IMG/VR virus record: IMGVR_UViG_3300012664_000274
Span: 1-46,927 of that record
Source: a virus
Taxonomy: Duplodnaviria; Caudoviricetes
Reading direction: 5' to 3' (one strand)
DNA: 46,927 nt
The position numbers and the translations under genes are program-made. Positions 10,915 through 33,193 of the stretch are shown one piece after another. The notes beneath the pieces are model-generated. The model made no database searches. It saw only the letters and a program-made list of their open reading frames with translations, and was not told the origin of the DNA. How positions within the stretch are numbered: the first letter of the stretch is position 1; every line of letters starts with the position of its first letter.

Positions 10915-11510
10915 TATATTTTACCTACGTATGTTATTAACCATGTACTATAATTTATAGTAGTTGTGTGCGATGTAGTTTTTGTACCGATATTGTTCGT
11001 TGTATCTTGATAGTTTGTAATAAACGAAGTTGTTGCACTTGTAGTTTGTGCAGTTGACCAACTTGTATTTTGAGAAGTAGTTTGACTATATATCGTAGAG
11101 TAACTAGTTGTGCCTGACCAAGCAGTTGTATAATAAGTCAAGTATGAAGTAGTTCCATAAACGTAACCACCTTTAGTTTGACCAATTATCGTAGAGTTAG
11201 ATGTAGTATGACTTGTAGACCGACTATAAGAAGTAGTATTACTTGTAGTTTGATTATACGACGTAGTAAAACTTGTTGGTGCTGATGTAGTAAGATTAGT
11301 ACTCCAACTTGTTAAATTACTAGTTGTATTGCTTTTTGCTGTTGTAGCAGATGTAGAGAAATTAGTGCTATATGATGTAGTAAACGTAGTTGTACCACTA
11401 TGCAACCACTTTTTCCATAGAACTTGGTTATTTAACTTTAACTCAAATAATTCATTACCATTAAGATAAATGTTTTGTATTTGCGATAAATCTACCTGTT
11501 GTTGTGCCAT
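10914..11510 (-). CDS. Thr/Ser-rich low-complexity repeat protein, probably virion-associated
   Basis: Short N-terminal IYLNG.EL..LKLNNQVLW domain, then ~160 aa of T-S-x-x repeats around a central GQTKGGYVYG turn. Confidence 0.7.
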   Translation of the reverse strand: MAQQQVDLSQIQNIYLNGNELFELKLNNQVLWKKWLHSGTTTFTTSYSTNFSTSATTAKSNTTSNLTSWSTNLTTSAPTSFTTSYNQTTSNTTSYSRSTSHTTSNSTIIGQTKGGYVYGTTSYLTYYTTAWSGTTSYSTIYSQTTSQNTSWSTAQTTSATTSFITNYQDTTNNIGTKTTSHTTTINYSTWLITYVGKI

Positions 11511-11773: not shown

Positions 11774-12145
11774 TTAAGGTGTAGATAACGCTTCAATTTG
11801 TGCGATAATATCATCTATCATTGCATCAACTTCAGTCTTAGTATAATAACTTGATAAGTCTACAGACTCGCTTCCGCCGCCAGAAACATAGCCAGTTGGA
11901 CGTGCTAAAATGCGCACTATAACTTCATCATTTAATGATAACGCAGATGTAAATGTTAATGTGTTATCAGAAATTGTATAATCTGTAGTAGGTGCTTGCA
12001 TAACATCATTAACTAATACTATACAAGCATTTACTGTTGTAGATGTACTAAGTACTACTGCAGTTTGACCACTAGTAGCAGTGAATGTATCTACTAGTAA
12101 ATCTACAGTAGTAAACGCACTAGTTGGAATTTTATTAATTGCCAT
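11774..12145 (-). CDS. Small tail-fibre-associated protein
   Basis: FTATSGQT...VLVNDVMQAPTTDYT...TLTF module and a DLSSYYTKTEVD fibre motif. Confidence 0.65.
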   Translation of the reverse strand: MAINKIPTSAFTTVDLLVDTFTATSGQTAVVLSTSTTVNACIVLVNDVMQAPTTDYTISDNTLTFTSALSLNDEVIVRILARPTGYVSGGGSESVDLSSYYTKTEVDAMIDDIIAQIEALSTP

Positions 12146-12147
12146 AT

Positions 12148-12609
12148 TTATACCAATGTGTCAAAACGAGCTGTGCGAATCACTGTATTATTTGATGCAG
12201 GTGTAGCAAGTAATCTCACATTACCACCATTAATGTCTGCATCTAATGTAATCAGTGCACTAGCGCCAGTGTAAACTGTGGAATATTCTGTCATATAAAC
12301 GTCAGTGCCATCATGGATAACCATAACCTCTGTCATATGATATTGTGAACCACGTGTTGCTTGTACAATATACTTTGCACTTCTAATTTTAGTAACGCTG
12401 AATGTGTCTACAATCTGATTAGCATCTGTAGTTGATGCTGTATAAATTGCACGAGTCCAATCTGAAACTGGAACAACAGTGTTATCAGATTTTTTAAGAA
12501 AGACTTTGCCATCAACTGTGTTAATTGCCAATTCGCCATCGACTAATGCACCAGACGAAGGTATTGCACCTTCGACGACTGATCTTTTAAACTGAAGCAC
12601 TGTTGCCAT
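12148..12609 (-). CDS. Virion structural protein
   Basis: N-terminal QFKRS......P....L.DGELAINT.DGK.F motif and a C-terminal RSAKY.VQ...E...IHDGT...TEY domain common in T4-like fibre proteins. Confidence 0.7.
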   Translation of the reverse strand: MATVLQFKRSVVEGAIPSSGALVDGELAINTVDGKVFLKKSDNTVVPVSDWTRAIYTASTTDANQIVDTFSVTKIRSAKYIVQATRGSQYHMTEVMVIHDGTDVYMTEYSTVYTGASALITLDADINGGNVRLLATPASNNTVIRTARFDTLV

Positions 12610-12613
12610 CTAA

Positions 12614-12823
12614 TTACTCTTCTGGTTTATTCTCTACTGAAGAACTTGTAAAACCATCAGCAGGTTTATCTTGTTCTGCTACTTGTTTTTCTAATTCTTC
12701 GATTTGTGTTTTTGCAATTTGCAATTGCGTCTCTAACATAACGATTTTATTTGTCAAGTCAGAAATTGCGCGTTGTTGGCGCTCGATGTATACGTTAACA
12801 AATTGTTGTTGATCAACTTTCAT
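12614..12823 (-). CDS. Small coiled-coil protein
   Basis: Heptad-rich ISDLTNKIVMLETQLQIAKTQIEELEKQV; GGAG Shine-Dalgarno upstream. Confidence 0.65.
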   Translation of the reverse strand: MKVDQQQFVNVYIERQQRAISDLTNKIVMLETQLQIAKTQIEELEKQVAEQDKPADGFTSSSVENKPEE

Positions 12824-12835
12824 AATATCTCCAAT

Positions 12836-12869
12836 AAAATAATAGACCTGTCACTATTTATGACAGGTC
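12836..12869 (-). terminator. Hairpin/terminator with an embedded late-promoter-like CATAAATA
   Basis: Perfect 9-bp stem GACCTGTCA (12845-12853) / TGACAGGTC (12861-12869) with a 7-nt loop, followed on the minus strand by TATTATTTT. Confidence 0.6.
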
Positions 12870-12882
12870 CCAAAAGCAATTT

Positions 12883-14676
12883 TTAGTATGTACCGCAGTC
12901 GATGTGACCGAATGATGGAACACCAGAACCATTCATCTGTAACACTTGACCAGTTACACCATAAACACTTGTTGAATCTTCGTTATAGAATACAACATTA
13001 CCAGAACCATTAACACCCATCACTGATGTGTTTAGATAGTTGCCTGATGTAAATGTCATGCTATCAATTAAAGCGTTACTGAACTTAACGTTTGCTGCAG
13101 CACCAGAAATAACTTCAGAAGCATTTGTCGCATCTTCAATAAATGTGAAGCGAGCTGCAGATGCATCGTAACCGAAGAAACCTTGTTTAGCGTCAGTACC
13201 ATCATGCCATTGGAACAAGATGCCCTTATCCATGCCATCAGGAGCAGATAAAGCAGTATCACCACCAAGGATGAAGATCGGATCATCAACCGTCACAACT
13301 GTAGAGTTAACGGTTGTAGTTGTACCGTTGATTGTCAAGTTACCTTCGATAACAACTGAACCAGCAGAACCTGTTGGGTTTGGATCCAAGTACATAACAC
13401 CACCAGTAGTTGTACTGATTGTGTCACCGAGAATCTTGATCTTACCAACTTGCAATGGAATAGATGTGTCTGTGAAGACCATTCCATTTTCATCAAGGTT
13501 TACACGCTTGATACCATCAGTGTAGAATTCTAAGTCGTTATTGTTTGCACCTGGAGATGTTTCTGCACGAATGAATGTATTTTGGTCAACGTCGATAACA
13601 CCACCAAGACCTGTCCAATTAGAACCATCATACGCTTCATATCGTAGATCTGTTGTGTTATAACGAATCATACCGGCAACCGGTGTGCCTGGGCGTGATG
13701 CTGTATTACCAACTGGAATCTTAACAGCTGTTGCTGAGTTGATGTTTGTTACACCAAGAGCATTAGGTTCAAAGTTAATATCACCATTGCTATTTGTAGC
13801 AGCGATAGTGTTACCATTGATGTTTAAGTTATCAATGTCTGCAGAACCAACTACGTCTAAATCACCAACAAGCACTAAGGTGTTTGTATTCGTGTTGAAT
13901 TGGAAATTGCCTGAGTCAACTAATTCACCGTTTGTACCAGCGAATGTAACACGACCTGCAGTTAGATCTTCAACGTTTACTGAAGCCAATGTAGATTGAC
14001 CATCAACATTTAATGTACCAACGATTTGTGTGTTACCTGTTGCATGAGCAACGGTAAACTTGTTAGTACCTAAGATGAATGATGTACCATCAAACGTCAT
14101 GTTTGCTGAGTCAACCAATTCACCATTTGCACCAACGTAAACTAAACGTGTTGCAGTTAGGTCTTCTACATTTAATGATGCAAGAGTTGATTGGCCATCA
14201 ACATTTAGTGTACCAGTTGCATGAATATCACCAGTATGTTCTAATAGACCAGACAATGTAAGATTCGTAGCAGTGAAAGTGATATCACCTAATGTATTTA
14301 GGTTAATATCACCTGTACCATTTGCAGTTACATTGATATCACCATTCGCATTAGTAGATGTAAGACTGTTACCATCTAAACGTAGATTGTCTACGTTGAA
14401 GATGTCAATCTTGCTATTCGAATCGACGATTAAAGCTGATGACGCAGTTAGTGTACCTGGCGTATGGTCTAACTTACTTGTGAAGTATGTACCACCGATA
14501 ACTTCGATATTTGCAGCTGCACCAGTTTGTGAATCTTCTGTACCTGTACCAATATATAGACGTTCACCACCATTTGATAGTGTGCCCGTTAGGTAAGAAT
14601 ATGCTAACTCACCAGTGGCAAGCGCGGATGGTGAACCGCTTACGCCCGAGTTCTTGATTTTAATAATTGTACTCAT
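12883..14676 (-). CDS. Tail-fibre/virion structural protein
   Basis: N-terminal IKIK.S......P..L..GELAY, repeated DNL.I.GN.I..TN.NGDI motifs, IPVGNTASRP..GMIRYNT, GNLTINGTTTTVNST...VDDP, C-terminal IDCGTY. Confidence 0.78.
   Translation of the reverse strand: MSTIIKIKNSGVSGSPSALATGELAYSYLTGTLSNGGERLYIGTGTEDSQTGAAANIEVIGGTYFTSKLDHTPGTLTASSALIVDSNSKIDIFNVDNLRLDGNSLTSTNANGDINVTANGTGDINLNTLGDITFTATNLTLSGLLEHTGDIHATGTLNVDGQSTLASLNVEDLTATRLVYVGANGELVDSANMTFDGTSFILGTNKFTVAHATGNTQIVGTLNVDGQSTLASVNVEDLTAGRVTFAGTNGELVDSGNFQFNTNTNTLVLVGDLDVVGSADIDNLNINGNTIAATNSNGDINFEPNALGVTNINSATAVKIPVGNTASRPGTPVAGMIRYNTTDLRYEAYDGSNWTGLGGVIDVDQNTFIRAETSPGANNNDLEFYTDGIKRVNLDENGMVFTDTSIPLQVGKIKILGDTISTTTGGVMYLDPNPTGSAGSVVIEGNLTINGTTTTVNSTVVTVDDPIFILGGDTALSAPDGMDKGILFQWHDGTDAKQGFFGYDASAARFTFIEDATNASEVISGAAANVKFSNALIDSMTFTSGNYLNTSVMGVNGSGNVVFYNEDSTSVYGVTGQVLQMNGSGVPSFGHIDCGTY
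13900..14215 (-). repeat. Internal duplication (~41 aa x2) in the 597-aa fibre
   Basis: GTLNVDGQSTLASLNVEDLTATRLVYVGANGELVDSANMTF versus GTLNVDGQSTLASVNVEDLTAGRVTFAGTNGELVDSGNFQF; coordinates approximate. Confidence 0.8.
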
Positions 14677-14678
14677 GC

Positions 14679-14903
14679 TTAGTACTTGCCTCCGATGATT
14701 TTTGTTTTGCTACGTGGATGATCGACTTCTGATTTAAGAACAAACTTTGCAGTTTGCTCATCATATACCATCATCGCACCGTCTTCTAGTTGTGTTGCAT
14801 CAATATCAGTAAGATCCAGTAAGCTCATGGATTGAATACCAAGAGCCATTGTTTTTACCTTGATTGACTTGTTTGTATTAAGTCTTACCTTTAAATCAGC
14901 CAT
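14679..14903 (-). CDS. Small virion-associated protein
   Basis: L.DLTDID...L.DGAMMVYD....KF fibre motif; C-terminal IIGGKY echoes the IDCGTY end of the next gene. Confidence 0.6.
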   Translation of the reverse strand: MADLKVRLNTNKSIKVKTMALGIQSMSLLDLTDIDATQLEDGAMMVYDEQTAKFVLKSEVDHPRSKTKIIGGKY

Positions 14904-14908
14904 GTGAT

Positions 14909-15247
14909 TTACCTCGTTACTCTAGCAGTTACTGTAACCTGTCCTTCAACCACTCGAATAACAGGAACGCCTGACGTGTGTACAATTTCAACGTCATAAA
15001 CATAACGACCTGGTTTCATTGACGCCGTTTGTGTTGGTGTCAACTCAATCTTGATTTTGCCTTGACCTTGAGAAGTCAATTTTGTACATGCAAAAGCATA
15101 TGACGTAGAGGATGTATAAGTTCTACGAACTTGTCCTCGTACGGTATAATTTGTAAGATCTAAAGCGTTTCCGACTGTATCTTCTACGGTAATCGTAGAA
15201 CTAAAATCAGATCCTTGATCCATGATTAAATTTGCAACAATTGCCAT
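14909..15247 (-). CDS. Conserved T4-like virion structural protein (BppU N-terminal-like Ig fold)
   Basis: NL..DQG.DF...DLT.YT...QVR...G.I...LT..QT.....GRYVYDVEI......RVVEG...V...VT. Confidence 0.7.
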   Translation of the reverse strand: MAIVANLIMDQGSDFSSTITVEDTVGNALDLTNYTVRGQVRRTYTSSTSYAFACTKLTSQGQGKIKIELTPTQTASMKPGRYVYDVEIVHTSGVPVIRVVEGQVTVTARVTR

Positions 15248-15280
15248 TGAAAATTCTTTATAAAAAGGTTGTTCTGGCTT

Positions 15281-15288
15281 TATTTATA
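15281..15288 (-). promoter_or_regulatory. T4-type late promoter TATAAATA
   Basis: Exact motif overlapping the DUF3050 stop codon, upstream of the structural genes that resume at 15247. Confidence 0.7.
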
Positions 15289-16036
15289 TAACTTGCTGTT
15301 CAATGGCATCAAATAGTTGAATTCTGGCATCAATAGCTTTAATTGCTGCTTGCTCAGCCTCATGGATTAAAAATGGATCGTTTTTACAGAAATATTCTAC
15401 CAGTTTCTCTGACATTGGTCCATGATCTTCTCCATCAACCTCAATGTGACGTTCTAGATAGTAATAAAACTTTGGAGCATTTAATCGTGACATCTGGGTT
15501 TGCTTAAGTACTCGCTTAAACATTGCAGGGATTGCAGTCTCACGTCCATAGCAAAATGAAGCGGCCGCGCAATGAGGACCTTTGTAGATCGCGTCAAATG
15601 TGGTATTCACAAATGGCTCAACAACTTCAGGGGCAAACCAATGAACACCATGCTTTTCAACCTTGGCGAGATATTCTCTAATCAAAGATGTATCTGCACC
15701 AACCTCCATCATGGCTTGGAGGTACAAGTCAAAGTGGCTAATTGGACTTCCATCTTGGCCAATATCAGATTCTTCACACAACACAATTTCATTGATGGTT
15801 CTAGCAATTTCAGATCTAGTGCCAGAGGTAGGCAACCACAATCTACCAGATGGAACCACCTCATGTTGTATGGATTTTAATAAACTCATGAAGTCCCATA
15901 CTGCAAATACATGGTACTTCATAAATGTTCTTAGATCATCCATGTTCTGAATAACAGTTGTATTCAATAATGGATGTGCATTTAATGCATCTTGGCGTTC
16001 TTTAATTTTACTTAGGTTTAATTTCATCGATGCCAA
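15284..16036 (-). CDS. DUF3050 family heme-oxygenase-like (putative diiron) oxidase
   Basis: FM..HVFAVWDFMSLLK, INEIVL.EESD, SHFDLYL.AM..GADT, GRE..IP.MF, YYLERHIEVDG..HGP. Confidence 0.85.
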   Translation of the reverse strand: MASMKLNLSKIKERQDALNAHPLLNTTVIQNMDDLRTFMKYHVFAVWDFMSLLKSIQHEVVPSGRLWLPTSGTRSEIARTINEIVLCEESDIGQDGSPISHFDLYLQAMMEVGADTSLIREYLAKVEKHGVHWFAPEVVEPFVNTTFDAIYKGPHCAAASFCYGRETAIPAMFKRVLKQTQMSRLNAPKFYYYLERHIEVDGEDHGPMSEKLVEYFCKNDPFLIHEAEQAAIKAIDARIQLFDAIEQQVI

Positions 16037-17321
16037 TTTCCAATAATTCTACAGGACTTCCAAATAATAATGCAAATGATTGCTGTTGGATTGCAGAGAA
16101 CCAAATCTTTTCAACTCTACAATTATGCATGAATACTTCATCTGGGAATTTAATTGGACAACTAGACTTACATAGTCTACGCACAGGACATGTATAGCAA
16201 TGCTCATTCTTTCTGTCCAAGTCTAATCCAATAATCTTAATCCCTTTAATATCATTGATATGACCGCCATTAAACTTCTCAGACGTATGCGGACACAATC
16301 TAATATTACCACGAATGTCGATCGATAGAATATCAGCAGAGTCTGCACCACAACTTGATACCATTGTAATAGGGATTTGATGACGTGTCAAACCCGCATA
16401 TTTTAGAACACCAGTATCATTATCAATAATATTGGTATTTAGAATTCTATCACCAGTGGTTTTGATCTGTTCAATTCCAGCAACAATAAAGTCATTGACG
16501 ATCTTCTTAAACTTAGGTAAATCATCACCTTTAATTACATGTTCTGCAGAGTTTTTACTATCGCTGTCATCATATACACGTGCAGGAATATAACTCATAC
16601 GCACATGTTTCAATTCGAATGTATCTGCAACATCTTTAAAGTAATCATTGATTGCAAATAAGTCATAGTTTGTGGCAGATACAACGCAGTTGAAACTATA
16701 TTGCACCTTAGGATGCATATCATCTAATTGTTTTAATGTATTAACAACTGATGCTTTGTCAAAGATATTCTCACCTCTGAGTGTTTCATGACCTGGTCCA
16801 TCGTGAGATATACCCATCATCACAGAGGCTTCTAATGTTTTAAAGAAGTCGACGTGCTTTTGACGTAATGGAGAACCATTAGTCGAAATATAGAAATGTC
16901 TATTAGGTGCATCTAAAAATTTCATGATTGGGACGATATCATTCCAATATAAGAATGGTTCACCACCCCAAAGTTCGATGCGCTCTAAATCAGATAAGTC
17001 CAAATTATTTTTAACAGATTCGATAAATGATTCTAGCCAGAAGTTTTCTGGTCTTTCATCTGGATTACCAATATCTTTTTGCATGCAATACGTGCATGAA
17101 TAATTGCATGCATGACCTAATAGAATACGCATAGCGACAGGTCTATTGGTTTTATGTGTTACACCAAATAAGTTTTGCGAATTAGCATTCTCGAAATATT
17201 CCTGACCTTCCTTTGGAGGAAGTGACATTAATTCACCGCTCTCATTATAGATGCTATTGTCTTCAGTTTTATAATAAAAAACTGTGTTACTATTTGTGAC
17301 TTTAAATTTACTGTATGGCAT
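16008..17321 (-). CDS. Radical SAM/SPASM-domain protein
   Basis: CNYSCTYC, WGGEP, STNGS, ISHDG; C-terminal CGA...IDIRGNIRLC and CYTC.....CKSSC...C; probable start MPYSKF at 17321. Confidence 0.9.
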   Translation of the reverse strand: MPYSKFKVTNSNTVFYYKTEDNSIYNESGELMSLPPKEGQEYFENANSQNLFGVTHKTNRPVAMRILLGHACNYSCTYCMQKDIGNPDERPENFWLESFIESVKNNLDLSDLERIELWGGEPFLYWNDIVPIMKFLDAPNRHFYISTNGSPLRQKHVDFFKTLEASVMMGISHDGPGHETLRGENIFDKASVVNTLKQLDDMHPKVQYSFNCVVSATNYDLFAINDYFKDVADTFELKHVRMSYIPARVYDDSDSKNSAEHVIKGDDLPKFKKIVNDFIVAGIEQIKTTGDRILNTNIIDNDTGVLKYAGLTRHQIPITMVSSCGADSADILSIDIRGNIRLCPHTSEKFNGGHINDIKGIKIIGLDLDRKNEHCYTCPVRRLCKSSCPIKFPDEVFMHNCRVEKIWFSAIQQQSFALLFGSPVELLEIGIDEIKPK

Positions 17322-18375
17322 TATTAGACTCAATCAAGGGGATTACATTATCACTGACATTAAACAAACCATATTTAGTTTGTGTCCAACCGTCTTCTAC
17401 TAATTTATAAAAGAACCTGGACTTAGGTGGGATCATCACTGCTGGGATAAAATTAAAATTTGGATTCACAATATAGTTTTGTGTTTCCTCGTAATAATCT
17501 TTGAAATGTGCATGTTCTGCTTGATCTTTCCATAGACCATATTTAACTTGCTTACGTCTAACTAAACTGTATAAAAACGCTTGCATATTAATTTCATTGC
17601 AAAACGTAAAGAATGGTTCAGCTTCAATATTTGCAGAATCGTCACATGAATAATAGAAACGATCATAGTGCAATTGAATAGATTCACGATAAATCTGTTT
17701 AATTCCAGTGTCTGAGTTTTCAACCCATGTATTCTGATATTCTGTCCAATCGTGGTTTAATATCTTTCTATCAGGACTTCTGAAGTCATGGATAACACAA
17801 TTATTTAAACCAAGTTGATTGACCCATTTAATAATCTCTTCGAATACTTCTGGGTGGCCACAGTCAACATACTTTACTTTCTTAACACCATATCGTTCGT
17901 GCAGTTCTTTCACTGCAGATAATACTTTTTCTGCACCTGTATGCTTGATAAAATCAGTGCTAATACCAATATCTGCTACACCAGCAAGATTCAATTCTTT
18001 TAATCGTAGCAATCTAAAGATAGCATTATCAGTTACACAGATATGGAAACGATGTGCATTTTCTTTATACCATGCATATTGTTTAGGGTGATTATATTTT
18101 AAGAAGTAGAGGTCTTCATTAGTTCTAAGTTCCATGAAATAATCAAAGAACTTATTCCAGATTGGTTCCATCTTTTCAATATTATCATCGAAGATGGATA
18201 ACGGTTTTACTTGTTCAAGTTTGTCTTTAATATAACAAACCTTGCACCCAGCATCACAGTAATATCTTCGACCCAAACTAAAATAAATGTCATATTGCAA
18301 TGAATGCAATGCATCTTCTTTAAGCCAATATTCGCCTAAATTTTCATATGTGTCAAAGTTATTACCGTCGTTCAT
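17308..18375 (-). CDS. Divergent radical SAM-like protein
   Basis: CDAGCKVCY fits CxxxCxxC near the N-terminus, but no GGE motif or SPASM Cys set is recognisable. Confidence 0.6.
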   Translation of the reverse strand: MNDGNNFDTYENLGEYWLKEDALHSLQYDIYFSLGRRYYCDAGCKVCYIKDKLEQVKPLSIFDDNIEKMEPIWNKFFDYFMELRTNEDLYFLKYNHPKQYAWYKENAHRFHICVTDNAIFRLLRLKELNLAGVADIGISTDFIKHTGAEKVLSAVKELHERYGVKKVKYVDCGHPEVFEEIIKWVNQLGLNNCVIHDFRSPDRKILNHDWTEYQNTWVENSDTGIKQIYRESIQLHYDRFYYSCDDSANIEAEPFFTFCNEINMQAFLYSLVRRKQVKYGLWKDQAEHAHFKDYYEETQNYIVNPNFNFIPAVMIPPKSRFFYKLVEDGWTQTKYGLFNVSDNVIPLIESNNAIQ

Positions 18376-19493
18376 TGTTCAATCTCAAAATCAGGATTAA
18401 TTCCAACCCATTCTAAAATGCTTTTCTTTTCGTGCAGTTTATCTAAGTGCATCATAATATAATCCATGGCAGTATAGAATTCTGCGCAGTGACCTTCTGG
18501 TTCTCTATCAAATAGATGGTACATGTATTTTAGACCACAACTACTTTCTTTATGGCAACTTAGGCAATCATCTCTGATTCTAGATTTATTGCCAAGGTTT
18601 TTCCATATCTGACGAGTTTTCCAATTACCAATTCTGCCAGCATCAATCTTATATTCTAAGAATTCAAATTCTGGATACATGTATCCATCTGGACCTAAGA
18701 TTAATTTATGATGTTCACCAAAATATGCTTTATCAATCTTGGTATAACAACCATCGACAAACACATTCAAACGCTTGATATAAAGAATCTGGATGAGTTG
18801 AATAAAAGCATCCATAAATTGTGGAATATTAATTCGATCAATAATAACATCGAATTTATCTTTACCACGCTTATGTCTAAGCGGAATAATGTTAATTGTT
18901 CTGCAGTTTGTCTTATAACATGTATTGACAATCGTCTTAATATTGTCAAAAGAGAATGCAGTCTTATTATCTATTGGCATTACAAACTGCCATTGCCAAG
19001 TGTCACAGTACTTGTTTAAGACTTCTGCCATTTCATAAACATCAAAACCTTCACGGTTTTCTTCTTGATACATGAAGTCATAGCTTACAGTTGCACGCAA
19101 AATCTTGTTGTATTTTGCGAAGAACCATTCATTCTCTTTGACCAAAGAACCATTTGTGGTTAACGTAATTTTCCAATCATGTTCAAGCGCCATTGGATAT
19201 AACCATTGCATGATTTGTTCCATACGCTTGATGAATAATAATGGTTCACCGCCATGGAATGAAACTAACTTCAAATCATTTGGTTGTGATACAACCCATT
19301 CGAAGAACTCTTTCATTTCATCGACATTGGTCCTATTCACATTTTGACCACCAATAGATTCGATATAACCTCTATCACAATACACACAATCAAAGTTGCA
19401 TGTATTGCCAAGATATAAAGTTATCAAGTAAACCTTATTCAGCGGTTTACTTGGAATCACATTAATTATAGAGTCTTTCACTGAATGTTCCAT
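18372..19493 (-). CDS. Radical SAM protein with partial SPASM/twitch domain
   Basis: CNFDCVYC, FHGGEPLL, TTNGSL, VSYD; C-terminal GPDGYMYP, CLSC.....C and C. Confidence 0.9.
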   Translation of the reverse strand: MEHSVKDSIINVIPSKPLNKVYLITLYLGNTCNFDCVYCDRGYIESIGGQNVNRTNVDEMKEFFEWVVSQPNDLKLVSFHGGEPLLFIKRMEQIMQWLYPMALEHDWKITLTTNGSLVKENEWFFAKYNKILRATVSYDFMYQEENREGFDVYEMAEVLNKYCDTWQWQFVMPIDNKTAFSFDNIKTIVNTCYKTNCRTINIIPLRHKRGKDKFDVIIDRINIPQFMDAFIQLIQILYIKRLNVFVDGCYTKIDKAYFGEHHKLILGPDGYMYPEFEFLEYKIDAGRIGNWKTRQIWKNLGNKSRIRDDCLSCHKESSCGLKYMYHLFDREPEGHCAEFYTAMDYIMMHLDKLHEKKSILEWVGINPDFEIEQ

Positions 19494-21180
19494 GGAATGT
19501 TTTAGAATTTTGTAATACAGTAATATGTAGCAATGTTAAGTAGAAGCATCTTTCTAACATAGAAGTTGCTTTACGTTTTTCAGGATTATGCAACATACCA
19601 CTCTTTTGCATCACATAATAATAAAATTCGTCAATTTCCATAGAATCATCAGTCATTAGATTCTTAACTTGGTCTACGTAAGTATCTGCTTTAAATTCTG
19701 GATCAATTTCTTTATCAATTATCTTTTTCCAAAGCGCCAATAGATGCTTATAATCTGCATTATCAATTCCAGTATGAACTAATTCATTCTTAGGATGATA
19801 ATTAAAATAATTGAAGAACATTAGATAACTTAGACCACGAACAAATGCAACTTCTTCGCCCATATCATTACATGCTTTTGCAATTGATTCATACTTATTT
19901 CTAGTTTGTTGCTTAATAATATCTTCTTGCAAGTCGACATATAGTTTAACAATCTTTTGGCACATATCATCAGGACTAAACATTTTAGCACCGATATCCA
20001 AATTACCAGCTGGACATTGATAACATGCATTCTTATAATCACAAGTTTGGCACTGTTCCTCAGTTTCAAACATTTTATTATATTCTTGCTTGAATAGATT
20101 ATAACGATCAGTATAAATTACGTCTTGATAAACATTGCCCAAAATGGCTGAATTACCTGCACCAGCTTTTTGGTTTGTGAAGAAATAACAACCGGAAAAA
20201 TCTCCAGATGCATCGATCGCAATCATCTCTGAACCAATCATGCAATTTTCTTCACCTTTTTGACCAACACCTTCAGAGAAGTGGATTTCTAAATTCTCAT
20301 ATTCAGATAATACGAATAGAATATCTTTGTGCAATTGATCCCATTCATTATCTGCCCATTTAATGAAGCCTTTAGATGAGTCTAAGATTAATGGATGTAC
20401 GACAAGTTTTCTAATTCCACGATCATGCAAGTTCTTAACAAACTGCTTGAAATGTGGTGCATTTTCACGAGCAAGTGTGCAACGAATTAATACTCGTTTT
20501 GCAAGTTTAATATCTAATGGCATATCAGCAATTTGTGCCATCAGTTTATCAATTTTATCTTGGCCAATTTCTCTGTGATCGACCTCTGCAATATCAGTGT
20601 CTAACGAGATAAGCATACTAGTAAAATCGTATTTGAAATACTTTTCAACTAGATCTTTTGTGACCAATAATCCATTAGTAACGATACCAATGTTGGTGTT
20701 AATATCACCTTTAGAATTGCGTGACAATTCATCCTGATTCTTTTCTAAGAAGTCAAGAATAATATCTTTATGGATTAGAGGTTCACCGCCGAAGAATTGG
20801 AATACTTTTCTTTGACGATTATTAGAGTTCACTAGGAATCTATATGCAGATAATAGCGACTCATTGGTGAATCGACCAAAATCTTTATTGTGTTGCTCGT
20901 AGCAATATGTACATGACAAATTACATGCATTTGTCAAGATTAAATTCATCTGTTTTAATTCCTGGAACAAATACGACGAATCAGATAGTTTATCTACCTT
21001 TTCAGTATCTGACGGAATAACAGAGATTAATTTATTTTCTTTTACCAACCCTTTAGGCGTGACAATGGTTTGGGATTCAAACTTTAATGTGCCATCACCC
21101 ATTTGAATAACAGAAGCTTTATGTTGTTCTTGCTTTTTAGTTTGTTTTTCTTCGTTTAGCCATATTATATGTTTTTTCAT
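19462..21180 (-). CDS. Radical SAM/SPASM-domain protein (peptide-maturase-like) with C-terminal extension
   Basis: CNLSCTYC, FFGGEPL, VTNGLL, ISLD; CMIG.....IDASGDFSGC and CQTC.....CYQCP...C. Confidence 0.92.
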   Translation of the reverse strand: MKKHIIWLNEEKQTKKQEQHKASVIQMGDGTLKFESQTIVTPKGLVKENKLISVIPSDTEKVDKLSDSSYLFQELKQMNLILTNACNLSCTYCYEQHNKDFGRFTNESLLSAYRFLVNSNNRQRKVFQFFGGEPLIHKDIILDFLEKNQDELSRNSKGDINTNIGIVTNGLLVTKDLVEKYFKYDFTSMLISLDTDIAEVDHREIGQDKIDKLMAQIADMPLDIKLAKRVLIRCTLARENAPHFKQFVKNLHDRGIRKLVVHPLILDSSKGFIKWADNEWDQLHKDILFVLSEYENLEIHFSEGVGQKGEENCMIGSEMIAIDASGDFSGCYFFTNQKAGAGNSAILGNVYQDVIYTDRYNLFKQEYNKMFETEEQCQTCDYKNACYQCPAGNLDIGAKMFSPDDMCQKIVKLYVDLQEDIIKQQTRNKYESIAKACNDMGEEVAFVRGLSYLMFFNYFNYHPKNELVHTGIDNADYKHLLALWKKIIDKEIDPEFKADTYVDQVKNLMTDDSMEIDEFYYYVMQKSGMLHNPEKRKATSMLERCFYLTLLHITVLQNSKTFHGTFSERLYN

Positions 21181-21200
21181 TTCACGCCTATTAGTTTATT

Positions 21201-21413
21201 TTAGAATGTTCCTCTAGAACATTGGCACTGACATTGACATTCACAAACAGTTGTATAATCATCATAGAAAATATGATTATGTGATTGCAAACTTTCAAGC
21301 ACATCTAACATCTGTCTAAATGTGTCTGCAGTAATTAAATCACCTGCACTTTTATTAGGAGGAGTTGAACCACCACCTGTGCCTGATACGTCTGATACGT
21401 TTTCTACGCCCAT
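21201..21413 (-). CDS. 70-aa Cys-rich peptide, putative radical SAM substrate
   Basis: AGGAG Shine-Dalgarno; ends HNHIFYDDYTTVCECQCQCQCSRGTF with five alternating Cys; immediately upstream of four rSAM genes. Confidence 0.75.
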   Translation of the reverse strand: MGVENVSDVSGTGGGSTPPNKSAGDLITADTFRQMLDVLESLQSHNHIFYDDYTTVCECQCQCQCSRGTF

Positions 21414-21421
21414 AATTGCTC

Positions 21422-22330
21422 CTATCGAATAATGTCCACTACGTATTCTTTAAAGAATCTGTTTTTACTTGCATGGAATGTCATATCCATTACAGTTCCA
21501 GTATTCCATCGTAATGAAATATATCCTTTGTCTTTATTTATTGTACTTACACGGATCGTATTTCCATCGAGAACGTAATCAAAATTAGTATCAATCTTGA
21601 TTTTCGCATCTTTGAAAAAATCTCCAAGATGTTCTTTAACGAACCATGAACCAAATGGCTGAATAGTAAATTCATCACCACGGACAAATACATTATTCTC
21701 ACCAATCACTCTAGCATTTTTACTAAACTTAGGTTTAAACACAACATCATTCATATTCTTTAAATGATTTGATATCGTATAAACTTCATTCTCATCATAG
21801 ACTCCATCAATATTATTAATGGTTTGAATAGCATGAGGATTCATAACCATATAATATAATGGCACATCACGAGTTTTAAAACAGAAAAACCATGGAATTA
21901 ATGTAGGGTTTACAACTGTTTTGCCACTAATTAAATCTATTACATCGTTACCATTTCTCATATAGAACGATGCATTTGCAATAACCTCTTGTTGTGAAAG
22001 AGCTTTATTCTCCATGATAGACGCATATAATACAATTTGATCAACTGTATCATCAACTATGCTTGCAATCTTTGAAAAGTTTAATCTAATTTCAGTAGAT
22101 AACAAATCAGGACTATATGGCTTTTTCAAAATCAAACATGACTCATCTTGTGATTTTGTAATAGCAAATCTGTTATCGACTCTTTCGAAAAACGAAATTC
22201 TACTATTATAACCTTCAGCATTATTATTACCATTCAATCCAGGTTTGATACTAACATTCGACATATTGATTGCATCATCCCATGGATCTGGATGCCCAAT
22301 ATTAGTTTGGATTAAAAATACTCTTTTCAT
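21422..22330 (-). CDS. Hypothetical protein within the rSAM cluster
   Basis: 302-aa ORF, ATGA-coupled to the ferritin-like gene; no motif recognised. Confidence 0.65.
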   Translation of the reverse strand: MKRVFLIQTNIGHPDPWDDAINMSNVSIKPGLNGNNNAEGYNSRISFFERVDNRFAITKSQDESCLILKKPYSPDLLSTEIRLNFSKIASIVDDTVDQIVLYASIMENKALSQQEVIANASFYMRNGNDVIDLISGKTVVNPTLIPWFFCFKTRDVPLYYMVMNPHAIQTINNIDGVYDENEVYTISNHLKNMNDVVFKPKFSKNARVIGENNVFVRGDEFTIQPFGSWFVKEHLGDFFKDAKIKIDTNFDYVLDGNTIRVSTINKDKGYISLRWNTGTVMDMTFHASKNRFFKEYVVDIIR

Positions 22331-23118
22331 AATGATTTCCTATATTGCTTCAATTCATTTGGCGTAGTCATTTTATGACCAGTTAAATTAGATGCAATTC
22401 TCAAAATACTTGCTTGCAATCTTTTCTGATCATGCTCATCAAACTTGAGTACATCTTGCAAGAAATGATCAAATAATTCAGGATTTGGCAAGCGTGAATG
22501 CACCGACTTCTTATTTATGTCCAAGGTCGATGCAGCCTTAATGGAAATGAAATATCGATTAGTCATGAATAACTGAAAGACTGCCAAAATACCTTTTGCA
22601 TTGTCTTTAGTATAATACTTTCGCATGAATGCTTTAAATGCACCTGCATGATTTGCTTCATCTAATACTAAAGAACGATATATTTCTTTAATTAATGGCT
22701 CTTCATGCCAATCTGCCATTTTTCTATACCATCTAATGACAGATAATTCAGTGCACATATGCAACGCCATCGTTTCAGCAACTGTCATTGGAGAATCACT
22801 AAACTTAATAGCAACTTCTTCAAATTCGTGCAATGTTGCTTCATGATCAGGAATAAATCGTTTAGAATATTCTTTTAAAATAAATGCATGCTTATGTTCA
22901 TCATGAACCCATTTAGCAATGAATGAATGTAAGTCTAAATCGGTTTCAGGAATTTCTTTCAGCATTGATAATGCCGCAGGCAACGATGCATACTCAATAA
23001 CAGTATTCATCTTAATAACTTCAGCATGAAACGAAGAAAGCTTATCGTCCTGATAAGCTTCCCAATTAATGCTTGATGCATCGAATGATTTGTTCAAATA
23101 TATTTTTTGTGATAACAT
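22327..23118 (-). CDS. Ferritin-like diiron protein (acyl-ACP-desaturase/oxygenase-like)
   Basis: Two E...DExxH units: IEY...WVHDEHKH and TEL...DEANH. Probable ATG at 23118 (the ORF track starts at GTG 23130). Confidence 0.8.
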   Translation of the reverse strand: MLSQKIYLNKSFDASSINWEAYQDDKLSSFHAEVIKMNTVIEYASLPAALSMLKEIPETDLDLHSFIAKWVHDEHKHAFILKEYSKRFIPDHEATLHEFEEVAIKFSDSPMTVAETMALHMCTELSVIRWYRKMADWHEEPLIKEIYRSLVLDEANHAGAFKAFMRKYYTKDNAKGILAVFQLFMTNRYFISIKAASTLDINKKSVHSRLPNPELFDHFLQDVLKFDEHDQKRLQASILRIASNLTGHKMTTPNELKQYRKSL

Positions 23119-23135
23119 AATATAGTCCACGTTTA

Positions 23136-23522
23136 TTATCCAGTTCTATCATCTATTGCGTGATTATGATAACCATATGCACGCATTGCTCCAGCCATTT
23201 CGTTGTGTTTACCAGCAGTGATAGTAGTTGTAGTGCTAACACCACCTAAAGCTCCAGGATTATTACTATAACCACCAGTGCTACTATCACGTATATATGT
23301 ATTTCTATCCCCATTATTACCATACGTTGCAGTTTGGTATAAATCGTCATACGTATGATAGTGACCAATAGCATTGTTGATCAAATTAATCAAGGTTTGA
23401 ATATCACCTTGATACACTATAGCACCAGAAGTAATTTTAGAACGAAGCGTAGAAATATAACCACCTAGATTTCCTAGATCATTGTAATACCAACTTTTGT
23501 GATATCTAGTTACTTGTGCCAT
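23136..23522 (-). CDS. 128-aa protein with two HxHxxDD repeats, homologous to the 70-aa peptide
   Basis: GHYHTYDD and YHNHAIDD are each preceded by a helical segment that aligns without gaps to the 70-aa peptide. Confidence 0.7.
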   Translation of the reverse strand: MAQVTRYHKSWYYNDLGNLGGYISTLRSKITSGAIVYQGDIQTLINLINNAIGHYHTYDDLYQTATYGNNGDRNTYIRDSSTGGYSNNPGALGGVSTTTTITAGKHNEMAGAMRAYGYHNHAIDDRTG

Positions 23523-23523
23523 A

Positions 23524-23955
23524 TTAGTCTAACCTTAAAACTTCATTGAAGAGATATGCGTTTGTGCCATCATGAATTCTAATATAAACATTCTCTGCGT
23601 CTATATTCTTCATGCTTAATAACGGATTAATGATAGCATTGTTAATTATGTCGATAATTTCTGCAGTATTTTGCTTATCGACATAATATTTAATATAGTT
23701 TCTTGATTCTTCGCTAACCATTGAATGTGTCAAGAAGTCAGTGTATATGTTATTGTAACTTGGATCAATGAAAATATCATTTTCTCCAAGCGATTCAGGG
23801 AACATTTCGTTTACTGCTTCATCACTTCCGATGACAGCAATATATTTTTGTACTACATCATGATCAGCGAACACCAAGACATCTTGCAATTCAGGATGTT
23901 GAAATGCATAATCTCTTAGTGCTGCAGCATGTTGTGGATTTACTTGATAAGGCAT
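23524..23955 (-). CDS. Hypothetical protein
   Basis: 143-aa acidic ORF overlapping the upstream fibre stop; no motif recognised. Confidence 0.6.
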   Translation of the reverse strand: MPYQVNPQHAAALRDYAFQHPELQDVLVFADHDVVQKYIAVIGSDEAVNEMFPESLGENDIFIDPSYNNIYTDFLTHSMVSEESRNYIKYYVDKQNTAEIIDIINNAIINPLLSMKNIDAENVYIRIHDGTNAYLFNEVLRLD

Positions 23956-25046
23956 TCTACAATCACTTCACCGAATGTTGCATTAGATTCTAGCGCAAAA
24001 CCAATTGGATTTACTTCACCATAGACTGCGCGCCCATCAAAACCTGCCATGATGCGTTGTCCTTTAATGATTGGACCCATGACACGAACAGGCACACGAC
24101 CAACTAAAGCAATTGCTTGTCCTTCGCTTTCGCTATTCATTAGGTACGCTGGATCTGTTGATACAACACCAATTGCTGGTTGACCAATTGAATATGACGC
24201 AGTACATTCTGAACTTGAACCTGGACCAGCAATAACAACTACTGTTCCTGGCAAATACTCTTGGTCAGTTGTATATTTTTCGGCTAAGTCAGCATATCGA
24301 GCAGCTGTTGCTGTACCATTGAAAACGTTGGCTGTTAAGTTACCAGAGCTATCGCGTGCAGCAACTGTATTACCTGTTGCAGTAACAGTTTGTGTTTGAC
24401 CATTCAACAAGAATGAATCCGCAGCTTTACCAGTTGTGCTTAATGGTGTATAACCAAGTGATGAACTAATATCACCTGCAGCAATTGTACTACCTGCTGT
24501 TGCGCGACCTTTAGAATCAAATGTGATTTTTGTATATGTGCCTGCAGTAATACCGCTATTAGCAAGTGTCAATGCGCTTGTGACATTACCAGAACCATCA
24601 AATGATGTAGTCCAAGTTGCATCACCTGTGATACTAATTGAACGTGCAGTTGCTAATCTAGAAGCTGTACCACTTGCATTACCTGTTAAGTCACCTGTTA
24701 CATTACCTGTGACGTTACCTGTTAAGTTACCAGTTACATTACCAACTAATGGACCGTTGAATTGAGTGGCAGTCATTTGTCCAGTAACTTGTAAGTTACC
24801 AACTGCATCTAGTGTCAATTCAAATGTATCAGAAGTGTCAACACTAATTTTGAATGTAGTATTTGGTGTCGCTTCGATCATATCGCTAATTGGTTTTAGC
24901 GTAGATCTAATTTCATTCATGCCATCGACTACAGTTTGTGCTGTAGTTTCAAGTAAAGACGTATCACCAATGAAAGCACCGATTTCGTTGGTCTTAGTTC
25001 TCCATGTTTCAAACGTGTCTTGGATATTTACGTTAATAGCTGACAT
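23940..25046 (-). CDS. Baseplate-attached fibre/spike protein with a C-terminal peptidase-G2/intramolecular-chaperone-like domain
   Basis: N-terminal DTFETWRTKTNEI anchor, GNVT repeats, AGTYTKIT.D.KGR.T fibre motif, C-terminal YADLAEKY...GTVV...IGVVST.PAYLMN...ALVGRVPV.V.G.I.KG. Confidence 0.68.
   Translation of the reverse strand: MSAINVNIQDTFETWRTKTNEIGAFIGDTSLLETTAQTVVDGMNEIRSTLKPISDMIEATPNTTFKISVDTSDTFELTLDAVGNLQVTGQMTATQFNGPLVGNVTGNLTGNVTGNVTGDLTGNASGTASRLATARSISITGDATWTTSFDGSGNVTSALTLANSGITAGTYTKITFDSKGRATAGSTIAAGDISSSLGYTPLSTTGKAADSFLLNGQTQTVTATGNTVAARDSSGNLTANVFNGTATAARYADLAEKYTTDQEYLPGTVVVIAGPGSSSECTASYSIGQPAIGVVSTDPAYLMNSESEGQAIALVGRVPVRVMGPIIKGQRIMAGFDGRAVYGEVNPIGFALESNATFGEVIVECLIK
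24670..24750 (-). repeat. 12-bp tandem repeat encoding (G-N/D-V/L-T)n
   Basis: GNVTGNLTGNVTGNVTGDLTGNASG; recurring ttacctgt-like units on the + strand; coordinates approximate. Confidence 0.8.
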
Positions 25047-25298
25047 TTAATTCTCTCTATTTTGAATATTTGCTACTAGAATTGAAAGCATCTGTTTAAT
25101 ATCACCCAATTCTTGTTTGATGTTGTTAATATCATCGTCGTGTTTAGCTAAAGCGTTTTCCATAGCTCTTCGTTTTTCACGACGATTGATATATGCATTA
25201 TAGCCTTCGTCATCTGTATTTATGATTGCACGTGAAACAGGGTCTCGTAAGAGCCTTGTTTCACTTTCAACCTTTAGCATATCATTATGCACAAGCAA
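25047..25298 (-). CDS. Conserved T4-like phage protein
   Basis: KVE....L.RD..S.AIINTD...Y..Y followed by a coiled coil; typically follows the large virion protein. Confidence 0.7.
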   Translation of the reverse strand: MLVHNDMLKVESETRLLRDPVSRAIINTDDEGYNAYINRREKRRAMENALAKHDDDINNIKQELGDIKQMLSILVANIQNREN

Positions 25299-28200
25299 TG
25301 ATCCTTAGATCTTTAACACGTGGTACACGCGCTGAGTTACTTGACTTGAATACTAGCTTAACTGCTAATGCATCGAACGCTGTCAAATCTTTCAAATCAA
25401 ATTCAATATCATAGAATGTATTTGGATTTGAAGTCTTTGTAATTGCCTTAACTGGAGAAGTTGCTTGTGTATAGTTGAACTGAGAAATATCAGTTGTAGA
25501 ACCAGATGGAAGCAACTTGTACCATACTTCAACATCAGCACCAGAAACTGCTGGAACGTTTGCTGAGAACATGATCTTCAAGAATGTTGAAGGCTTAGCA
25601 AGTGTAATAGTACTTGTTACATACTTAGATTCTGATGAACTTCCGACTGGAGCGATATCAGAAACATAGTTGTCAAGCATGTTGATAACAGCAGTTGTAC
25701 CAGATTGTGTTGTGAATGTATGGTCAGTTGTGATACTTGAACCATCAGTTGCAACACCAGTCACTAAGATTGGATCAACAGTATTGTTAGTTCCAGAACC
25801 AGTTCCGCTCAACTCAATATACTTACCAACATTGACACTCTTAACACGTGAACGATAATCACTTACGTTCGCGATACTGATAGTTTTACCAGCAAATGAA
25901 ATTGCTGTACCGCTAGTAGCAGAGATAATTGTTCTATCATCGACTGCATCAACGTTCTTGCTAACTGCAGTGTATGTGTCAATCTTGTTCTTGATAGTAA
26001 TCAATGACATGCGTGATGTATCGATAACTGGAGAAACGTTAGCGTTATCTGTTGTCATACGTGCAGTAACTTTTACCGACTTATCAACTGTATTAACTTC
26101 AGAAGCTACCACGTGTGGAGCATCAAAGTATGTAGTGATGTTTGGAACAATAGATGTTGGAGATGTCTCCATTTGGTATGTTTCATTCATTGGTGTCATA
26201 TCAAACGCCAATGTTGTATCAGCAAATGTTTGTGATGAAACAATCAAGTTTGCAGCATCATAACCAACGTTAACCGTTGCAACAACTGTACTTCCACCAA
26301 CAAAACCTGATGCAGTTGCATTTGTACCAACATCGATAACGAATGAATCACGTTCAGCGCTTACGATTTGGAATTCACCGTTCAAACCAGTTGTTGAAGT
26401 TGTAACAATGCCGTTATATGTTGCACTTGGCACACCAACGATTGTAACAGTAGAATCGATTGGCATTGCATGGTTAGGTGCAAATACACGAACCTTAGGT
26501 GAACCGCTTGTAGTCTTAAATGGATCTGTTTCTAACACAATTGCTGGCAATGGTTCGTTATTGAACTCAATCGCTGGATTTGCAGTTGTATTGAACACTG
26601 CTGAGTGGATTCTAAACTTCAAATCTTGCTCTTGGTTAGCAGTCCATGTAGATGCGTTTTGTGATTTAAACAATACACCTGCGTATGGTTGTTCAGAGAT
26701 GAAACGGTTTGTACCGATATTTTGTTCACCTAGTTGAGCAATCCAAACACGATAGTTGTTAGAATCTGATAACAACACTACGCAATATTCTACATTATCT
26801 TGCAAATACACTGGAGATTCGAATGTGAATGTTGTTGCAACGTTTGCAATTCCAGTTTGGTCAACATTTACTCGATCAGGTGTTAATGTAACACGAGAGA
26901 ATGGAAGAATCTTTTGACCTGGGTAACCGTTAACAACTTCGCGAATCTGCAAGTTGACTGGAACACCAATATCCTTAGTGGCGAAATATACATCTACTTT
27001 AGTGATGAAAGCACCACCAGTAGATTGCACTAAGAATGTTTGTGCCAATGGATCATACCAACCAGTGTCACGAGTCAATGCTTCGTCACCATAAACTGTC
27101 CATGGACGTGTTTCGCTAGCAGGTTGTACTGCAACGTCAGCGTTACGAACCGCGTTAATAGTCTTCTGTTTAGTTTCTAAAACACCTTGAGCACGATATT
27201 GTGTACGACCTTGAGTTGTGTAATCTAAACCACCAGTTGAACTGTCGCTCAACTTGAATTCACGAATACCTGTACGGAAGCGAATTGACTCTGTGTTAGG
27301 GATAGAGAACACACCAGCAACAGAACCGTTGAAGTTAGTAACTAAATCATCACCAACATCAAGAGGTGTAACTGCCTCAGTGATTGTATATTCAGCACCA
27401 GAGATAGAACCTTTGATGATATCACCAACTTGGAATGTACCTTTACGAATATTCAATACGTAAACCGCTTCAGCAGCAGATTCAACTGATTTTTCTGTCA
27501 ACACTGCAACTGCAGTTACAGGACTATCGCTCTGTGAGTTGTAAGCTACGCTACCACGTTGCTTGACATAAACGACGTCACCTTTGTTATACGCAGCTTC
27601 AGCTTTAGTGCTTACTTGACGTGCAACTTCCTCAGCATCACCACCAACGTTTACATCAGTGTTGAATGATTTACCATTTCCAGAACCGATGCTAATTTTT
27701 GTAGAAGGTGTAATGAATGCCTTGATGTCAGTGTCATCGAAGAATGGATTTACTTTAGCACCAGGTTTCATACCCTTACATACGAATAGCAATTCACGTG
27801 AACGGATATATGGAATTAACGCTGTCTGTAATACACGATCTTCAACGACTTGATAGTCAATGCGTGGAGTAACAGTCGTTGTAACACCAACACGACCTTG
27901 AATAACTGATGTAGCTGGAGTTGAGAATGTTAATACACGAGCACCAGCAGCACCATTACCAAATGATGTTGCGTCACCACCAATAGCTTCTAATTCAGCT
28001 TGAGTGAATGTACGACGATCCATCCAACGACCAGCACCTAGACCATAGTCTCTGCTATCGAAACCACGTGTAACGACTAGACGATCGATGTTTTGTGTTT
28101 GGCCAACCCATTGAGTTTCCCAAGCACCCCAAACTGTACCCAATACACCTTTAGCTTGTAATTGAGATTGAACTGCGTTAAAGTTACCTTCAACGTTATT

Positions 28201-31671: not shown

Positions 31672-31691
31672 ATTTTAAAAGCCTTAATTTA

Positions 31692-33185: not shown

Positions 33186-33193
33186 TATTTATA
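33186..33193 (-). promoter_or_regulatory. T4-type late promoter TATAAATA
   Basis: Exact motif in the gp7-gp8 intergenic gap. Confidence 0.75.

Follow-up and report, generated by a model that had tools for sequence, protein, structure and literature searches.

The 46,927-nucleotide stretch of viral DNA analysed here (the window, taken at its full length; IMG/VR record IMGVR_UViG_3300012664_000274, Caudoviricetes) belongs to a freshwater T4-like phage and contains a tail region in which a cassette of radical S-adenosylmethionine (rSAM) genes, together with the gene of a short cysteine-rich peptide, PEP70, lies between fibre genes. With a probability of roughly 0.55, seven conserved genes of this cassette constitute a late maturation module whose rSAM enzymes cross-link the cysteine ladder of PEP70 by thioethers from cysteine sulfur to carbon, the product being a rigid tail-fibre tip. 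That the ladder is the substrate of these enzymes was considered more probable than this reading as a whole. The analysis established the gene content of the cassette, its order and conservation, the cluster ligands of the enzymes, the late motifs and the coupling of the sister clade of one enzyme, rSAM4, to ladder-ended fibres.

Conserved core genes and the cysteine ladder

The ten co-oriented, overlapping or abutting genes that the initial annotation had placed between fibre genes were all confirmed on the minus strand at 15284-23955. In reading order, these open reading frames (ORFs) encode U143, P128, a ferritin-like protein of 267 amino acids (aa), U302, PEP70, rSAM1, rSAM2, rSAM3, rSAM4 and a DUF3050 oxidase of the HamA type, and the intergenic gaps of -32 to +20 nt continue without a break from 33161 down to 15284. 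A search with the peptide profile found the peptide in 35 viral loci. Contigs of three public freshwater DNA runs, one of which is possibly the window's own source, spanned 30 of 30 bins of 12000-31700, and no indels inside the cassette were listed in them. Because of this recurrence and this coverage, the cassette was regarded as neither a chance arrangement nor an assembly artefact.

Among the 35 loci, 24 had at least 3 kb of upstream and 7.5 kb of downstream sequence; the other 11 were too short and were left out. The loci are not independent, several of them forming near-identical pairs. P128, U302, the peptide and rSAM1 to rSAM4 were present in 24 of 24 full-flank loci and are referred to as the seven core genes. 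The accessory DUF3050 gene was found in 17 of these loci, U143 in nine and the ferritin-like gene in three. A fibre-type gene flanked the cassette in 21 of the 24 (a tally for which a single member of each near-identical pair was scanned). In locus L026, a virion gene was located about 3.5 kb from the cassette, and a NifU-like Fe-S assembly gene (17008-17391) follows the cassette at a distance of 0.8 kb.

The same core, preceded by two fibre-like genes, was found in the cultured phiKZ-like phages RP12 and RP31, in which the peptide is unannotated; the ladder peptide of RP31 (AP017925) is a 65-aa ORF at 12748-12945 of locus L043, and the same was observed in RP12. Comparison of structural models gave template modelling (TM) scores of 0.71 for U302 against a 295-aa RP12 protein and 0.70 for P128 against an RP12 protein. 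A scan of 185,579 species genomes for cellular copies of the cassette found none, returning one spurious 15-residue match.

PEP70 (21201..21413, minus strand), the predicted substrate, consists of a variable N-terminus, a helix-HxH module, a ladder of alternating cysteines from C57 to C65 and an RGT tail, 70 aa in total. It had been described as ending in CECQCQCQC; the ladder is indeed present, but five further residues (SRGTF) follow it, and 30 of 30 distinct PEP70 homologues have an RG(T/S/I) tail. The pN/pS ratio was 0.25-0.29 for residues 28-70 versus 0.76 for residues 1-27 (uncorrected, with synonymous sites saturated); by this sequence measure, residues 28-70 are constrained. An [NDQE]CxC unit occurred in 30 of 30 peptides and in 111 of 111 ladder ORFs of the fibre type described below. 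The ladder spacers of the 30 distinct peptides were Q (31%), A (24%), N (23%), E (18%) and D (5%), and those of the fibre ladders (n = 111) were mainly N (61%), D (14%) and A (12%); glycine and proline were nearly absent.

P128 (23136..23522, minus strand) is a Cys-free core protein with two tandem helix-HxH-xxD modules (predicted local distance difference test (pLDDT) score of the model, 75), in which H54, H56 and D60 as well as H119, H121 and D125 are invariant. Comparison of the P128 and PEP70 profiles (hhalign, 92%) demonstrated that this module is common to both proteins and occurs twice in P128. The proposal that P128 is a homologue of the peptide thus holds for the module and not for the ladder, which was absent from 31 of 31 P128 homologues. 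P128 is likely a scaffold or partner of the peptide. Neither protein gave a homology match to fibre proteins, and longer proteins carrying the module of PEP70 or of P128 were not found (a null result of little weight). In L036 (8596-9954) and L038 (9066-9950), the P128 homologues have a C-terminal extension.

Radical SAM enzymes and ladder-ended fibres

The four tandem rSAM genes of the cassette, all on the minus strand, had been annotated by their CxxxCxxC motif. The motif was found in all of them, but only rSAM1 (572 aa, 19462..21180), rSAM2 (373 aa, 18372..19493) and rSAM4 (441 aa, 16008..17333) exceeded the Pfam cut-off for PF04055, with the three motif cysteines invariant. rSAM3 (355 aa, 17308..18375; phrog_36229) is a divergent rSAM-like protein in which CxxxCxxC is conserved and the GGE motif is lacking; it gave no Pfam match even at E 1 and no NCBIfam match, and was linked to rSAM1 (75%) and rSAM2 (65%) by profile comparison alone (hhalign). 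SPASM domains require seven or eight auxiliary cysteines for two clusters. Three SPASM-type sets had been claimed, and only two turned out to be complete: rSAM1 and rSAM4 have seven conserved auxiliary cysteines each, rSAM2 has four conserved ones and rSAM3 has none.

The nearest models of rSAM1 were PapB, SCIFF and QhpD, all of them far under cut-off: against the cut-offs for ranthipeptide synthases, rSAM1 scored 113 of 340 bits for PapB, 76 of 425 for CteB and 73 of 453 for QhpD. Its only PDB match was 5WGG (E 2e-15), and the rSAM4 profile matched 8VPO, anSME and 5WGG. Grouping with QueE or NrdG was not seen, and the nearest relatives of rSAM1 and rSAM4 were peptide-modifying SPASM enzymes, as had been supposed. 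Readings as PqqE/PqqC, QueE, NrdG or viperin were rejected, the best scores being far under cut-off and the cysteine patterns different. Matches of rSAM1 to gut 'phages' resembled cellular SCIFF-type loci and were dropped.

A search with rSAM4 found single enzymes behind fibre genes in phages JWF and RSP15. The size of the rSAM4 family was apparent from a search with an alignment headed by the JWF enzyme, which found at least 560 relatives in viral contigs and at least 174 in cellular assemblies; the best 80 of each were kept. Altogether, 163 loci were examined, and in 158 of them the enzyme could be called. In 105 of the 111 loci with enough flank, an ORF upstream of the enzyme had a terminal CxCxC ladder, which was C-terminal in 92 and placed before a Hint start in 13. 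No ladder ORF was found downstream of the enzyme (0 of 94 loci), and 4 of 158 loci had one on the opposite strand. When 29 ladder ORFs were picked for diversity out of 112 distinct ones, 19 matched PHROG tail families. Therefore, the link to fibre tips that had been suggested for the cassette is stronger than could be seen from the window.

In a quick tree of 50 proteins (midpoint root, rSAM3 left out), each rSAM paralogue formed its own group, and rSAM4 joined the single-enzyme group with a Shimodaira-Hasegawa-like approximate likelihood ratio test (SH-aLRT) support of 98. Because of this grouping, and because the sister single enzymes lie behind ladder-ended ORFs, the sequence relationships make rSAM4 the likely ladder enzyme.

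Several additional features were observed. In 13 of the single-enzyme loci (L047-L058, L045, L136), the ladder directly precedes a Hint-type CFP start; autocleavage would therefore leave the ladder at the C-terminus of the fibre. The extension of the P128 homologues in L036 and L037 ends in a Hint domain like that behind the JWF-type fibre ladder. Genes for 2-oxoglutarate (2OG)-Fe(II) oxygenases are often placed between the ladder fibre and the rSAM gene (L059, L061 and others), in parallel to the 2OG-binding HamA-type oxidase of the window cassette. The side fibre of RSP15 (ORF048; L044, 5416-6288) ends in two alternating cysteines, a minimal ladder that was scored as a miss in the strict count.

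Late context, proposed mechanism and alternatives

The T4-type late promoter motif TATAAATA nearest upstream of the gapless gene run is located at 33186..33193 on the minus strand. Another late motif (15281..15288, minus strand) overlaps the stop codon of the DUF3050 gene and precedes the next fibre genes, a placement also found in 5 of 16 relatives examined. The cassette is enclosed by these two motifs, with no gap above 20 nt from the run of the 33186 motif to 15284. Since TATAAATA occurs six times in the window versus 5.5 times expected by chance, it is informative only by strand and position: all six share the coding strand and shortly precede a gene; five are no more than 60 nt away from the start of a listed gene, positions that make up 7% of the region, and the sixth precedes an in-frame ATG. 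Among the 16 relatives, the motif was found 24 nt (L027) and 31 nt (L023) before the peptide gene and 48 nt before U302 (L028). In L011, L013, L015 and L018, it was observed about 145 nt before U302, as if late transcription were restarted there. Scans for sigma-70 promoters and terminators remained at chance level, and one metatranscriptome gave scattered short contigs over the region, none of them over the peptide, which cannot show expression or timing. From the sequence, late expression of the cassette is predicted, and the late, structural context noted in the initial annotation is supported by the promoter motifs and by the fibre neighbours.

The cassette was compared with known systems. 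NxxcB/NxxcA, PapB/PapA and CteB/CteA (SCIFF) are like it in that a SPASM rSAM enzyme is encoded beside a short Cys-rich peptide with acceptor residues. The accessible part of the report on NxxcB describes linkage of Cys to the beta-carbon of Asn, with Ala, Gln and Asp tolerated (PMC9389541). On that description, the N-C-x-C unit is an NxxC motif and the ladder spacers include all four accepted residues; Cys-to-carbon thioethers are therefore the best guess. Thus, ranthipeptide systems match the ladder in NxxC-type spacing and in the acceptor set. Nevertheless, the cassette differs from them in score (113 versus 340 bits), in having four paralogues and a cysteine at every second residue, in the lack of a detected recognition element (RRE) for peptides that are made by ribosomes and modified after translation (RiPPs) and of a transporter, in its phage late context and in the occurrence of the ladder also fused to fibres.

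CrpC/CrpA/CrpB and QhpD/QhpC resemble the cassette as proposed here in that rSAM thioethers are placed on a protein that is no released peptide. In the portion of PMC13692751 available, CrpC of Methanococcus voltae is a SPASM enzyme with seven cysteines, the same number as in rSAM1 and rSAM4, which forms ranthionines on a protein with the aid of a substrate paralogue; this paralogue, CrpB, has the N-terminus of the substrate and is proposed to be a chaperone, with which P128 may be compared. As described there, the Crp system differs from the cassette by the 17-residue repeats of CrpA with C-X-X-Q/D, the RRE of CrpC, its archaeal origin and its single enzyme. The main text of that paper makes no mention of phages. 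The CXXX-repeat system (TIGR04114/TIGR04115) was also considered, since rSAM1 scored 72 bits on TIGR04115 (cut-off 350) and the ESM Atlas gave PF27846 at 0.80 for P128; it was rejected, the fetched precursors being long Cxxx repeats that matched neither the peptide profile nor that of P128.

HamA/HamC (fragin) and MgoB/MgoC (mangotoxin) are oxidase pairs in which HamC and MgoC are of the AurF type. The cassette resembles them by its DUF3050 oxidase, and in the window a ferritin-like diiron gene lies in the same operon. Unlike them, the cassette has no nonribosomal peptide synthetase (NRPS) carrier, and its ferritin-like gene is rare and without an AurF match. The T4-type gp37/gp38 fibre tip consists of an HxH iron needle and a separate adhesin cap; the cassette is similar in its HxH motifs and in encoding a small protein of its own after a fibre gene, but no sequence or fold match to it was found. 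To our knowledge, no enzymatic maturation of this kind has been described for such a tip. Literature searches, in which coverage of subscription papers was poor, found no description of the system; the word 'radical' does not occur in a jumbo-phage survey (PMC7824862), and PMC12801897, PMC7159879 and PMC10288494 deal, in their available parts, with other systems. Apparently, the cassette would work like a ranthipeptide or CrpC pathway, yet it fails the family score tests, and fibre tips appear to be an undescribed class of target.

In the favoured mechanism, the peptide, P128 and U302 would be made late in infection together with the fibre. The helix-HxH module of PEP70 would pair with the two modules of P128, and the three HxH motifs could offer six histidines to one metal, which is an idea only. 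rSAM4 with rSAM1 would abstract a hydrogen from the N, Q, E, D or A spacer three residues before a cysteine, giving a beta- or gamma-thioether as with NxxcB; rSAM2 and rSAM3 might introduce other changes or serve as partners, and the HamA-type oxidase and the variable enzymes might provide optional oxidative tailoring. The product would cap the fibre and be the in trans counterpart of the fused ladder of simpler phages. If so, a RiPP-type biosynthetic pathway would have a virion adhesin tip as its product, enzymatic maturation of the RiPP type would be added to phage assembly, a new chemical basis for receptor binding would be suggested, and a dense i/i+2 ladder of cysteines would be acted on by new rSAM chemistry. 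In its simplest form, the system occurs in the cultured Achromobacter phage JWF and is thus directly testable. A wider proposal, made tentatively and at slightly less than even odds, is that several unrelated lineages of tailed phages finish their host-binding fibre tips by rSAM chemistry on a CxCxC ladder, which in small phages would be fused and sometimes Hint-unmasked and in large phages would form a separate metal-bound cap served by four rSAMs and oxidases.

A number of results weigh against the cross-linked fibre tip. All four enzymes scored far under the cut-offs of the thioether families, and no RRE/PqqD domain was detected in the window genes or in 58 members of the rSAM4 family. None of the ladder-ended fibres was found to contain the helix-HxH module, and the P128 model had no fold match to a fibre or a solved structure (best Z 4.7); because of these two findings, it is context and analogy that speak for a fibre role of the separate peptide. 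The cassettes of L023 and L024 are situated near a DNA ligase gene, outside the tail genes, and the desaturases, FabF and aminotransferase encoded in the accessory slot of other loci point to lipid or small-molecule chemistry. Finally, the available record of LC-MS/MS (liquid chromatography-tandem mass spectrometry) of RP31 virions, which lists 32 proteins, includes none of ORF68-76 (PMC5468394), among them the P128 homologue (ORF70) and the adjacent fibres (ORF68/69). That list is shallow; because the smallest protein listed is 12.8 kDa and the peptide is unannotated, this negative result is weak, though it is negative for P128.

The absence of P128 from that partly available list, like the two loci outside the tail genes, would also be expected if PEP70 were a true RiPP precursor, its ladder and RG tail being modified and excised as a small product that diffuses (a metal chelator, a cofactor or a toxin against competitors) and is released at lysis, with P128 as a leader-like chaperone of the kind proposed for CrpB. 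The layout of PEP70 is leader/core/follower-like, four rSAMs with oxidases and an optional aminotransferase exceed the needs of one cross-link type, and lysis would make a transporter unnecessary. However, long fibres beside the sister enzyme carry this very ladder in fused form, the genes scanned included no protease, the 'leader' has an invariant HxH and a conserved helix, and fibre genes abut 21 of 24 loci, so that this alternative was judged unlikely.

A slightly lower probability was given to the cysteines remaining thiolate ligands, with the ladder binding metal ions or an Fe-S cluster and the rSAMs building or inserting a metallocofactor or modifying the spacers only. HxH motifs serve as iron ligands in fibre needles, and CxC periodicity places all cysteines on one face of a strand; in PEP70 this periodicity and an adjacent HxH occur together. 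The NifU-like gene of L026 and the incomplete SPASM sets of rSAM2 and rSAM3 fit such a role as well, and five cross-links over nine residues would be very crowded. On the other hand, the nearest relatives of rSAM1 and rSAM4 modify peptides, and the spacers are limited to residues with an abstractable beta-hydrogen, with almost no glycine or proline. An auxiliary metabolic operon for remodelling of host lipids or the envelope, parked in the late region and with the peptide not its main substrate, is very improbable: the desaturases of L024, L027 and L028, the FabF of L027, the class III aminotransferase of L011-type loci and the desaturase-like ferritin of the window would suit it, but such lipid-type genes come and go, whereas the peptide, P128, U302 and the four rSAMs are inseparable in 24 of 24 loci and have no cellular copy in the genomes scanned.

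Accessory genes and neighbourhood

The core protein U302 (21422..22330, minus strand; model pLDDT 86) has an N-terminal domain of unassigned fold and a C-terminal Ig-like domain (residues 192-302; best Z 6.5 with the model). No conserved residues of a catalytic type were found in U302, an ESM Atlas search with it gave nothing informative, and no profile match was obtained to the protein of about 280 aa encoded in single-enzyme loci. At most, a shared Ig-like end is suggested for the two proteins.

The DUF3050 gene (15284..16036, minus strand; 250 aa) was confirmed to encode a heme-oxygenase-like oxidase, of the HamA/MgoB type (PF11251, 246 bits), and its homologue in RP31 is annotated as MgoB. 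The protein matched PDB entry 9VWB (E 7e-48), and by counting along the alignment H40, E84, H96, R167, H199 and R240 of that entry correspond to H42, E88, H101, R165, H197 and R238 in the window. The former six residues are named as essential for HamA in the accessible part of PMC12522199; since these numbers agree, 9VWB was taken to be HamA. All six key residues are intact and invariant in 18 homologues. The analogy to PqqE/PqqC that had been drawn for this gene proved weak, the protein being HamA/MgoB-like and missing from 7 of 24 loci.

The ferritin-like diiron gene (22327..23130, minus strand) was borne out by a Rubrerythrin match and by intact diiron ligands (E46, E78xxH81, E128, E158xxH161). 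The protein weakly resembles acyl-ACP (acyl carrier protein) desaturases; no AurF match was found, and four of four copies matched only Rubrerythrin and, below cut-off, FA_desaturase_2. Because other loci place different genes in this slot, the gene, present in 3 of 24 loci, was treated as a variable passenger on the basis of gene content. U143 (23524..23955, minus strand) gave no significant match in family searches.

Elsewhere, the accessory slot holds membrane desaturases, FabF, an aminotransferase or a B12-rSAM. FabF and a desaturase were observed in L027 (5448-8969), two desaturases in L028 (7502-9102), one desaturase in L024 (7903-8700) and a B12-dependent rSAM in L031 (6309-8360); in L011 (7801-8988, minus strand) and its relatives, the cassette is split by the gene of a class III aminotransferase that lies on the opposite strand. 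Neither the ten genes of the window cassette nor the 45 scanned neighbours were found to include a transporter, protease or immunity gene, and no transporter or protease turned up in the accessory genes scanned, in agreement with the earlier remark that none was visible.

The families flanking the block are those of the baseplate wedge, hub, tube and fibre. The gapless run consists of a gp8-like gene, genes for proteins of 2128 aa and 83 aa, a fibre gene and the cassette, and fibre-assembly and fibre genes lie downstream. Directly upstream of the cassette, a 368-aa fibre-type protein is encoded (23940..25046, minus strand; phrog_7389 tail fibre, E 3e-18). At the C-terminus of three of its homologues, a weak Peptidase_G2-like domain was seen (E 0.001-0.02, below cut-off), and a search for this domain in the window's own copy gave no match. 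A second block of low GC content (27-32%) was observed within the fibre region at 8546-11510 on the minus strand. In it, the gene of a Ser/Thr-repeat protein of 198 aa precedes three genes of enzyme size (phrog_26179, one without assignment and a weak QueC/PP-loop match), and the block may likewise serve to modify a fibre-like protein.

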